Sequence record: OR352942.1
Reading direction: 5' to 3' (one strand)
DNA: 64,000 nucleotides
DNA from: Escherichia phage AV112
This document shows positions 47,684 to 48,511 of the stretch, piece by piece (within the stretch, counting starts at the first letter, position 1; the number at the start of each line of letters is the position of its first letter). The notes under the pieces are model-generated. The model was given only the letters and a program-made list of their open reading frames with translations. It was not told where the DNA came from and ran no database searches. The position numbers were made by a program, and so were the translations under genes.

Positions 47684-47759
47684 TGGTCGAGACAGTAGGG
47701 GTCGAACCTACGACCTAGGACTTAGAAGGTCCTTGCTCTTCCTTCTGAGCTATGCCTCG
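47684..47759 (-). tRNA. tRNA-Arg (anticodon TCT)
   Basis: Manual cloverleaf: acceptor CGAGGCA/TGTCTCG, D-arm GCTC-AGAAGGAA-GAGC, anticodon loop CTTCTAA, T-arm GTAGG-TTCGACC-CCTAC, encoded CCA. Confidence 0.85.
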
Positions 47760-47763
47760 GATT

Positions 47764-47838
47764 TGGCGGACATGCATGGATTCGAACCATGGACCAATTG
47801 ATTAACAGTCAACTGCTCTACCACTGAGCTACACATCC
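47764..47838 (-). tRNA. tRNA-Asn (anticodon GTT)
   Basis: Manual cloverleaf: acceptor GGATGTG/CATGTCC, anticodon loop CTGTTAA, T-loop TTCGAAT, encoded CCA. Confidence 0.8.
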
Positions 47839-47842
47839 AAAT

Positions 47843-47929
47843 TGGTTGGGAGTGATGGAGTCGAACCACCTGAGTCGCAATGACAATGGATTTACAGTCC
47901 ACACCGCTACCTCTACGGGATAACTCCCC
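47843..47929 (-). tRNA. tRNA-Tyr (anticodon GTA), long variable arm
   Basis: Anticodon arm GTGGA-CTGTAAA-TCCAT, long variable arm, T-arm GGTGG-TTCGACT-CCATC, encoded CCA; the 5' acceptor boundary is uncertain by 1 nt (a 1:72 mismatch if the start is 47929). Confidence 0.6.
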
Positions 47930-47938
47930 AAATTAATT

Positions 47939-48013
47939 TGGTGGCCCTGGGTGGAATTGAACCACCATCTGGCGATTATGAGTCGCTTGCTTGAACCTTC
48001 CAGCTACAGGGCC
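47939..48013 (-). tRNA. tRNA with CAT anticodon (Ile-lysidine type as in T4, or Met)
   Basis: Acceptor GGCCCTG/CAGGGCC, anticodon loop CTCATAA, T-arm GGTGG-TTCAATT-CCACC, encoded CCA. Confidence 0.8.
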
Positions 48014-48014
48014 T

Positions 48015-48090
48015 TGGTGCTGATTGACGGAATTGAACCACCGACCTTCTCATTACAAGTGAGTTGCTCTACCTACTGAGCTAAATCAGC
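48015..48090 (-). tRNA. tRNA-Thr (anticodon TGT)
   Basis: Acceptor GCTGATT/AATCAGC, D-arm GCTC-AGTAGGTA-GAGC, anticodon loop CTTGTAA, encoded CCA. Confidence 0.85.
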
Positions 48091-48095
48091 AAAAC

Positions 48096-48185
48096 TGGCG
48101 GAGGCGATAGGATTTGAACCTATGAGTCGCCGGAGCGACTGCCGGTTTTCAAGACCGGTGCATTAAACCACTCTGCCACGCCTCC
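48096..48185 (-). tRNA. tRNA-Ser (anticodon TGA), type II
   Basis: Acceptor GGAGGCG/CGCCTCC, anticodon arm CCGGT-CTTGAAA-ACCGG, long variable arm, T-loop TTCAAAT, encoded CCA. Confidence 0.85.
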
Positions 48186-48187
48186 AG

Positions 48188-48261
48188 TCTCCATACAAGG
48201 ATTTGAACCTTGGACCTCCTGATCCCAAATCAGGCGCTCTACCAAACTGAGCTACACGGAG
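48188..48261 (-). tRNA. tRNA-Pro (anticodon TGG)
   Basis: Acceptor CTCCGTG/TATGGAG (C1:G72), anticodon loop TTTGGGA, T-loop TTCAAAT; CCA is not encoded. Confidence 0.8.
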
Positions 48262-48271
48262 TAAATTAAAT

Positions 48272-48345
48272 TGGAGCGGATAATGAGAATCGAACTCACA
48301 TCATCAGATTGGAAGTCTGAGGTAATGCCATTATACGATATCCGC
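48272..48345 (-). tRNA. tRNA-Gly (anticodon TCC)
   Basis: Acceptor GCGGATA/TATCCGC, anticodon loop CTTCCAA, T-loop TTCGATT, encoded CCA; matches the recalled T4 tRNA-Gly sequence. Confidence 0.85.
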
Positions 48346-48350
48346 AAATT

Positions 48351-48437
48351 TGGTGCGAGAAGTGGGACTCGAACCCACAAGGAAATCATTCCGCAGCATT
48401 TTAAGTGCTGTGCCTTTACCAATTTGACCATTCTCGC
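48351..48437 (-). tRNA. tRNA-Leu (anticodon TAA), type II
   Basis: Acceptor GCGAGAA/TTCTCGC, anticodon arm CAGCA-CTTAAAA-TGCTG, long variable arm, T-arm GTGGG-TTCGAGT-CCCAC, encoded CCA. Confidence 0.85.
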
Positions 48438-48438
48438 G

Positions 48439-48511
48439 CTGGGAATAAAGGACTCGAACCTTTGCATCCTGGAATCAAAATCCAGTGCCTTACCAACTTG
48501 GCTAATTCCCA
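48439..48511 (-). tRNA. tRNA-Gln (anticodon TTG)
   Basis: Acceptor TGGGAAT/ATTCCCA (U1:A72, typical of Gln), anticodon loop TTTTGAT, T-loop TTCGAGT; CCA is not encoded; only 1 nt separates it from tRNA-Leu. Confidence 0.85.

Follow-up and report, generated by a model that had tools for sequence, protein, structure and literature searches.

Within a 64,000-nucleotide stretch of Escherichia phage AV112 (sequence record OR352942.1), which was analysed as a whole and is called the window here, a compact cluster of transfer RNA (tRNA) genes occupies positions 47684–48511 of the minus strand. ARAGORN found exactly ten tRNA genes in the entire window, all of them in this interval and on this strand, in the order tRNA-Gln(TTG) (48438–48511), tRNA-Leu(TAA) (48351–48437), tRNA-Gly(TCC) (48272–48345), tRNA-Pro(TGG) (48187–48261), tRNA-Ser(TGA) (48096–48185), tRNA-Thr(TGT) (48015–48090), a tRNA with CAT anticodon called as Met (47939–48013), tRNA-Tyr(GTA) with a long variable arm (47843–47929), tRNA-Asn(GTT) (47764–47838) and tRNA-Arg(TCT) (47684–47759). 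In an Rfam 15 scan of the window at the gathering threshold, the same ten genes match the tRNA family RF00005, and there is no match to any other family. Membership in this family required a score of at least the gathering score of 29 bits together with a full-length match to the model, and all ten matches span model positions 1–71. Nine of the genes score between 59.3 and 72.6 bits (E-values 1e-10 to 6e-14; 67.4 bits for Gln and 72.6 bits for Asn), and the Tyr gene scores 30.9 bits (E = 0.018). A preliminary description, made from the sequence by manual folding, had listed ten minus-strand tRNAs with these coordinates, this order and these anticodons; both programs recovered all ten with unchanged anticodons, which confirms that observation in full.

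The 3′ ends, read from the printed sequence, show that CCA is encoded in eight of the ten genes, including Leu, Gly, Ser, Thr, the CAT-anticodon gene and Arg. As had been described, it is lacking in Gln, whose 3′ end (..ATTCCCAG) is separated by a single C from GCGAGAA, the beginning of Leu, and in Pro, whose 3′ end (..TATGGAGA) is separated by the two nucleotides CT from GGAGGCG, the beginning of Ser.

Phage T4 carries its tRNA genes at the same genomic position, and its annotation agrees with the preliminary description in listing eight tRNAs with neither Tyr nor Asn among them. From Gln to Thr the two phages are 89–100% identical (65/73, 87/87, 73/74, 74/74, 87/87 and 71/76 positions, respectively), and the Leu gene is identical at 87 of 87 positions in T4, T2 and T6. 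Unlike their counterparts in the window, the Ser and Ile genes of T4 do not encode CCA, and CCA addition is needed by two of ten genes in the window versus four of eight in T4. Downstream of Thr the likeness breaks down: the T4 annotation places segB, a gene for a GIY-YIG homing endonuclease, between Ile and Arg, and the stable RNA genes rnaD and rnaC after Arg. In blastn comparisons with T4, homology at 94% identity extends from 49094 to 47994, that is, 20 nucleotides into the CAT-anticodon tRNA, and restarts at the CCA end of Arg, where 47687–47345 is 88.5% identical. The 306-bp block between the break points (47688–47993, minus strand), which has no T4 counterpart and comprises the 3′ three-quarters of the CAT-anticodon tRNA together with Tyr, Asn and Arg, takes the position that in T4 belongs to the 3′ part of Ile, segB and an Arg gene of different sequence. 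T4 thus has segB in place of Tyr and Asn and its own sequences of Ile(CAU) and Arg(UCU). The CAT-anticodon tRNA of the window is identical to that of T2 at 75 of 75 positions compared with 47/72 for T4 Ile, and its Arg matches T2 at 73 of 76 positions compared with 49/69 for T4 Arg. Because both genes match T2 and not T4, and because homology to T4 is broken across the whole block, the locus is, on sequence comparison, an alternative four-tRNA allele and not “T4 plus two genes”. The description of Tyr and Asn as additions in a T4 gap therefore holds as far as the absence of both genes from T4 is concerned, but the gap contains segB, and the flanking CAT-anticodon and Arg genes differ from T4 as well.

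No tblastn match to T4 SegB was found in the window at E ≤ 10, and the arrangement that defines the T4-type allele, segB between tRNA-Ile and tRNA-Arg, is absent. What is present is the arrangement of the T2L-type allele, in which CAU, Tyr, Asn and Arg genes follow each other without segB. The tRNA regions of T2L, RB1 and RB3 were sequenced in 2008 and reported to lack segB and to carry tRNA-Met(CAU), Tyr, Asn and Arg (Brok-Volchanskaya et al, PMC2330249; EMBL AJ880101, AJ884577 and AJ884578). With these the window shares the absence of segB, the distal CAT(Met/Ile)-Tyr-Asn-Arg block and a downstream rnaD-type RNA. The layout of T2 is Gln-Leu-Gly-Pro-Ser-[ORF]-CAT-Tyr-Asn-Arg-[ORF], where the open reading frame (ORF) trna.1 takes the place of Thr and the ORF trna.2 follows Arg; the window keeps Thr, which is also present in T4, and has neither ORF, hence ten tRNAs compared with nine in T2. 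The Tyr gene is identical to that of T2 at 84 of 87 positions and to that of T6 at 83 of 87, and Asn is a different allele that matches T2 at 63 of 73 positions. T6 combines Gln-Leu-Gly-Thr-Ile(T4 type)-Tyr-segB; it has a homologous tRNA-Tyr in the same operon (Chihara et al, 2026, PMC13096335), whereas Pro, Ser and Asn are missing from the annotation of this stretch. Across phages the locus is clearly a mosaic.

The tRNA genes are part of a longer unit than the preliminary description had outlined; its ten tRNAs stand, but two stable-RNA genes and a terminator had been missed. Upstream of the cluster lies a predicted MotA-dependent middle promoter (48581–48608, minus strand), consisting of the MotA box ATATGCTTTA (48608–48599), a 12-bp spacer and the –10 element TATTAT (48586–48581), with a predicted start at the A at 48574. 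The elements agree with the published consensus, in which a MotA box (a/t)(a/t)(a/t)TGCTTtA is placed 12 ± 1 bp from TAtaaT, and the start of the T4 middle promoter PtRNAE is listed at T4 position 72593 (Table 1 in PMC2988021). In a gap-free alignment this T4 position corresponds to 48574 of the window, 63 nucleotides before tRNA-Gln, and box, spacer and –10 element are invariant in the window, T4, T2, T6 and phage GiZh. A MotA-like promoter had been placed near 48540–48580; a predicted promoter of this type does lie upstream of the cluster and its predicted start falls inside that interval, but the elements themselves lie about 30 nucleotides further upstream. A second candidate (TGCTTGA at 48535–48529, followed after 11 nucleotides by AATAAT at 48517–48512) was rejected, as its box is not conserved in T4, T6 and T2 (TGTTAGA, TATTTGA) and its start would fall within tRNA-Gln. 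A generic scan for sigma-70 promoters and terminators gave five promoter-like sites compared with 5.4 expected from shuffled sequence and was not used.

Downstream of Arg follow homologues of two stable RNAs of T4, both on the minus strand. The rnaD homologue (species 2 RNA, 47565–47683) has 91 matches with T4 rnaD over 47569–47679; its ends are conserved, its middle is T2-like and its fold is not significant (z = –0.64). The rnaC homologue (species 1 RNA, 47423–47561) is identical to T4 at 137 of 139 positions, is annotated as rnaC in GiZh and folds with a minimum free energy of –50.2 kcal/mol (z = –4.55 relative to shuffled controls); its 3′ end forms a tRNA-like T arm containing the core motif of the SegB recognition site (47445–47435). 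Neither RNA is annotated in phage AV113, and neither corresponds to an Rfam family in the gathering scan or in a permissive E-value scan of 47300–47700. The latter returned a match to isrK, which lies on the opposite strand and, at 16.5 bits compared with a gathering score of 50, is at chance level. The unit ends in the intrinsic terminator GCCCCTTCCGAAAGGTTGGGGCTTTTTT (47344–47371, minus strand), whose hairpin and T run are conserved, and the homologous site of GiZh is annotated as a terminator. T4 has the same terminator and identical middle-promoter elements; according to PMC2330249, transcription in T4 is initiated from the middle promoter directly preceding the cluster and stops once species I RNA has been passed.

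For the CAT-anticodon tRNA, the acceptor stem drawn by ARAGORN consists of the pairs G-C, G-C, C-G, C-G, C-G, T-A and G-C, followed by A73, and thus contains C4-G69 and C5-G68. The annotated tRNA-Ile of T4, which accepts isoleucine, carries the same two pairs in its sequence. Both pairs are positive determinants of E. coli TilS (PMC1635315, PMC11947777). An initiator tRNA-fMet is ruled out by the paired G1-C72 and by an anticodon stem (A·C, G-C, C-G, G-C, A-T) without the three initiator G-C pairs. In the ORFs of the window ATA codons are enriched 4.7-fold relative to an E. coli sample, whereas ATG codons are at 0.85-fold. The TilS pairs, the missing initiator marks and the enrichment of ATA but not ATG favour a tRNA-Ile2 that would read AUA after lysidine modification, and from these sequence features we consider this assignment likely. 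Some doubt is left by C3-G70, a pair that is usual in Met tRNAs (PMC1635315), and the corresponding gene of T2L is labelled both Met and Ile in PMC2330249.

In the Tyr gene the first pair of the acceptor stem is a G1·A72 mismatch (position 72 is 47847). Among the records examined, A72 was seen in AV113, vB_EcoM-RPN187 and p000y only, and T2, T6, GiZh, JK36 and wV7 have C72. In addition, the D stem contains a mismatch and the T stem a G·U pair, while no such defect affects the anticodon loop, the long variable arm or A73. A weak D arm is seen in all versions compared, and in T2 and T6 the D and T arms are as weak as in the window. When single sequences are folded, the cloverleaf is not the minimum-free-energy structure for either the window or the T2 version (z about –0.7), so thermodynamic folding is uninformative for this tRNA; the weak D arm and the non-cloverleaf folding agree with the reported instability of T6 tRNA-Tyr (PMC13096335).

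A search of IMG/VR with the exact A72-form 3′ end of Tyr gave zero matches, and the C72 form was found in 84 contigs, 60 of which were analysed with ARAGORN. Since a single contig (L025) had a T-even-type cluster, with most others showing Asn/Arg-Tyr-Thr(-Ser-Met), the scan was useless as a survey of T-even architectures, although it did reveal the wide distribution of this Tyr type. In the non-T4 contigs of this set (L006–L085; for example L010 4877–4963 and L022 1420–1506), Tyr is mostly about 90% identical to the Tyr gene of the window (82–98%), and the Asn, Thr, CAT-anticodon and Arg genes at the same loci are mostly only 71–83% identical to those of the window. Among phages, this type of tRNA-Tyr seems to be exceptionally conserved or mobile.

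Two alleles of tRNA-Asn are found in T4-like phages belonging to several genera. The allele of the window occurs in 62 records, including RB51, RB68, JS10 and IME08, and in the anticodon and T stems its differences from the other are compensatory, which points to selection for a working Asn tRNA. From position 36 to 41 it reads U36-A-A-U-C|A41, the same six bases as the AriB site of E. coli tRNA-Lys, whereas the T2 allele reads UAAGC|G. The E. coli targets of AriB, from the PARIS defence system, are tRNA-Lys, tRNA-Thr(UGU) and, as a secondary target, tRNA-Asn; the cut falls at UAAUC|N, between positions 40 and 41 (PMC12409363). As it carries UAAUC|A, the Asn tRNA of the window is unlikely to be resistant to AriB, and the phage would stay sensitive to PARIS anyway, as it has no Lys tRNA.

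Over 47300–48700 the window is 100% identical to Escherichia phage AV113 (OR352943.1; Tevenvirinae, Mosigvirus), in which all ten tRNAs are already annotated, and 99.8% identical to vB_EcoM-RPN187; overall, 961 phage records match this region. Ten tRNAs in unchanged order are also annotated in GiZh, p000y and JK36, and wV7 has the ten-tRNA set plus His. The Mosigvirus mar005p1 phages p000y and JK36 have the identical gene set and order but differ in an extra ORF after Arg and in a T2-type Asn allele. Among phage records, 377 contain 80% or more of the four-tRNA block, 496 the Tyr gene and 183 segB (126 of which cover at least 80% of the gene); by these numbers, T4 represents the minority form. 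The feature is thus an ordinary tRNA operon of T-even phages, in the segB-free form that is common among them, already annotated, described in 2008 and not new.

According to the annotations of AV113, GiZh and T4 and to blastn synteny, the operon is placed between the e.5–e.8 side and the genes trna.2–trna.4, ip, 57B and gene 1. The stretch comprising the operon and the trna.2–trna.4 ORFs (47345–49504) is 88–98% identical to T4 in blastn comparisons, whereas the flanks at 45139–45841 and 50103–50677 are only 75–78% identical. With AV113 classified as Mosigvirus, this stretch may represent an island that has been conserved or one that has passed between genera. Directly after the operon terminator lies an ORF of 154 amino acids (46835–47299, minus strand) that is annotated as hypothetical in AV113; no T4 gene is annotated exactly at this site, where e.8 follows in T4.

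Almost all T2L tRNA genes are cut by SegB at their 3′ ends, Asn being its best target. Its 27-bp site has GGTTCRANTCC as core and terminates in CCAR, and the preferred site is marked by G6, A16, G18, A26 and A27. In crosses of T4 with T2L it replaces about 1250 bp including the Met, Tyr, Asn and Arg genes (all PMC2330249). At the 3′ end of Asn the window has a predicted preferred SegB site, GGTTCGAATCCATGCATGTCCGCCAAA (47762–47788, minus strand), which retains the core and each of these five bases. With segB absent and a SegB-type site kept in Asn, this allele would be overwritten by a T4-type allele in mixed infection, and the locus appears to be a segB-free allele susceptible to homing.

Codon usage was counted in 70 non-overlapping ORFs of the window (16,784 codons) and compared with the host, represented by 41 ORFs from 100–150 kb of the E. 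coli K-12 genome (14,727 codons). Every cognate codon or amino acid is over-used by the phage: CAA 1.5-fold, TTA 2.4-fold, GGA 2.3-fold, CCA 1.4-fold, TCA 2.9-fold, ACA 3.3-fold, ATA 4.7-fold and AGA 5.4-fold, Tyr 1.8-fold and Asn 1.6-fold (all codons of each amino acid). This supports the classical explanation that phage tRNAs supplement host supply, Tyr and Asn included.

Taking these results together, we consider it very probable that the locus is a tRNA operon of T-even coliphages of the segB-free T2L type, a complete promoter-to-terminator unit that would serve codon supply and probably buffer tRNA-Tyr, and that would be susceptible to homing. By analogy with T4, the MotA/AsiA-dependent middle promoter would drive, from about 48574, one polycistronic transcript of about 1.2 kb that runs through the ten tRNAs, rnaD and rnaC to the intrinsic terminator at 47344–47371. 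The precursor would be processed by the host, whose RNase P would form the 5′ ends and whose exonucleases or RNase BN would form the 3′ ends; the host CCA-adding enzyme would complete Gln and Pro, and host TilS would most likely convert the CAT-anticodon tRNA to a tRNA-Ile2 that reads AUA. The mature tRNAs would then top up the host pool for CAA, UUA, GGA, CCA, UCA, ACA, AUA and AGA and for the abundant Tyr and Asn codons of the AT-rich phage, and tRNA-Tyr, by analogy with its T6 homologue, probably buffers infection against host nucleases that target tRNA-Tyr (Septu, retron-Eco7). The Septu system EcB88 cuts tRNA-Tyr within its variable arm. T6 infection is rescued by overexpression of T6 tRNA-Tyr, whose effect against Septu immunity depends on dose, and T6 becomes sensitive when the tRNA region is deleted, whereas T2 is resistant and T4, which has no Tyr gene, cannot escape (PMC13096335). 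At 83 of 87 identical positions, the Tyr gene of the window is a homologue of the T6 tRNA that weakens Septu immunity.

Several points weigh against this reading. The mechanistic steps are all carried over from T4, T2 and T6, the codon counts were obtained from mechanically called ORFs and a single 50-kb E. coli sample, and the predicted SegB site differs from the tested T2L site at four of 27 positions (12–14 and 17), so that it may not be cleaved with the same preference. Tyr is the weakest of the ten calls, and with 30.9 bits, G1·A72 and a minimum-energy fold other than the cloverleaf it may work poorly. Septu also cuts T6 tRNA-Tyr, so that protection depends on dosage, and in T6 protection needed amplification driven by segB (PMC13096335), which is unavailable to the window phage because it has no segB.

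If codon supply were the sole reason for keeping all ten genes, the demand of an AT-rich genome would suffice and defence would play no part. The enrichment of the eight A-ending codons (1.4- to 5.4-fold) and of Tyr and Asn fits this well, but the single Tyr and Asn isoacceptors of E. coli each read both codons and leave no rare-codon gap, T4 grows well without a Tyr or Asn gene, and Lys codons are enriched 1.7-fold, similar to Tyr, yet the cluster has no Lys tRNA. As experiments with the T6 Tyr homologue have moreover demonstrated a role related to defence (PMC13096335), we regard supply alone as somewhat unlikely. Conversely, the cluster might serve mainly counter-defence, with Tyr, and perhaps Asn and Thr, replacing tRNAs destroyed by Septu and retron-Eco7 (Tyr) or by AriB of PARIS (Lys, Thr, Asn). 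Besides the rescue, deletion, T2 and T4 results with Septu EcB88, this is suggested by the targeting of E. coli tRNA-Thr(UGU) and, secondarily, tRNA-Asn(GUU) by AriB, where T5 variants of the tRNAs help to rescue infection (PMC12409363), and by the identity of about 90% between T-even Tyr and the Tyr genes of many unrelated phage contigs, far above that of the neighbouring tRNAs. However, T6 tRNA-Tyr is itself cleaved by Septu and thus not a resistant variant, the Tyr gene of the window carries G1·A72 and has no segB to amplify it, and the Asn gene with its AriB-cut tRNA-Lys motif and the lack of a Lys tRNA argue against evasion of PARIS; a mainly counter-defensive cluster is somewhat less likely than not.

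The make-up of the cluster could also be mostly a by-product of selfish DNA, in which homing and co-conversion swap Ile-segB-Arg and CAT-Tyr-Asn-Arg and the gene set reflects recombination history and not translational selection. The T arms of tRNA genes are SegB targets, and about 1250 bp are replaced in T4 × T2L crosses (PMC2330249); the alleles are shuffled among phages, with T4-type Ile, Tyr and segB in T6, no Thr in T2, an additional His in wV7 and two Asn alleles across genera; and the tRNA segment is 88–98% identical to T4 between flanks of 75–78%. Such traffic explains the mosaic but not the retention of Tyr in 496 records, and the compensatory changes in the Asn stems indicate purifying selection for a working tRNA, which makes selfish traffic as the main cause unlikely. 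The Tyr gene of the AV113-type lineage could be a decaying pseudogene, leaving nine functional tRNAs and not ten. It has the lowest covariance score, close to the gathering threshold (30.9 versus 29 bits), G1·A72, a mismatch in the D stem and G·U in the T stem, and A72 is confined to three of the records examined; yet the weak arms are common to T2 and T6, the T6 tRNA is expressed and biologically active (PMC13096335), and the change affects a single terminal pair while anticodon loop, variable arm and A73 are preserved, so that decay seems very unlikely. Finally, G1·A72 in Tyr and the alternative Asn allele could have arisen by recent adaptation in a contest with tRNA-targeting nucleases, and not by neutral drift; for example, the acceptor-end change might alter recognition by the Septu PtuAB proteins, or the Asn tRNA might act as a decoy absorbing AriB. 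We regard this possibility as extremely unlikely. The reading as a segB-free T2L-type operon for codon supply with probable buffering of Tyr is the one we retain.

As a discovery the cluster carries little weight, being annotated in an identical GenBank record, published in its architecture in 2008 and carried by hundreds of T-even-like phages. A framing centred on T4 nevertheless hides that T4 itself carries segB, that a block of four tRNAs has been replaced, and that the operon is longer, extending from a promoter through two stable RNAs to a terminator. T4 is an atypical reference in this region, with segB where other T-even phages have Tyr and Asn, and SegB homing is predicted to use the segB-free locus as a recipient. 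The Tyr gene is a member of a family that work from 2024 to 2026 has tied to evasion of Septu and retrons, and the presence or absence of Tyr, Asn and His tRNAs may therefore help to predict the host range of therapeutic T4-like phages.

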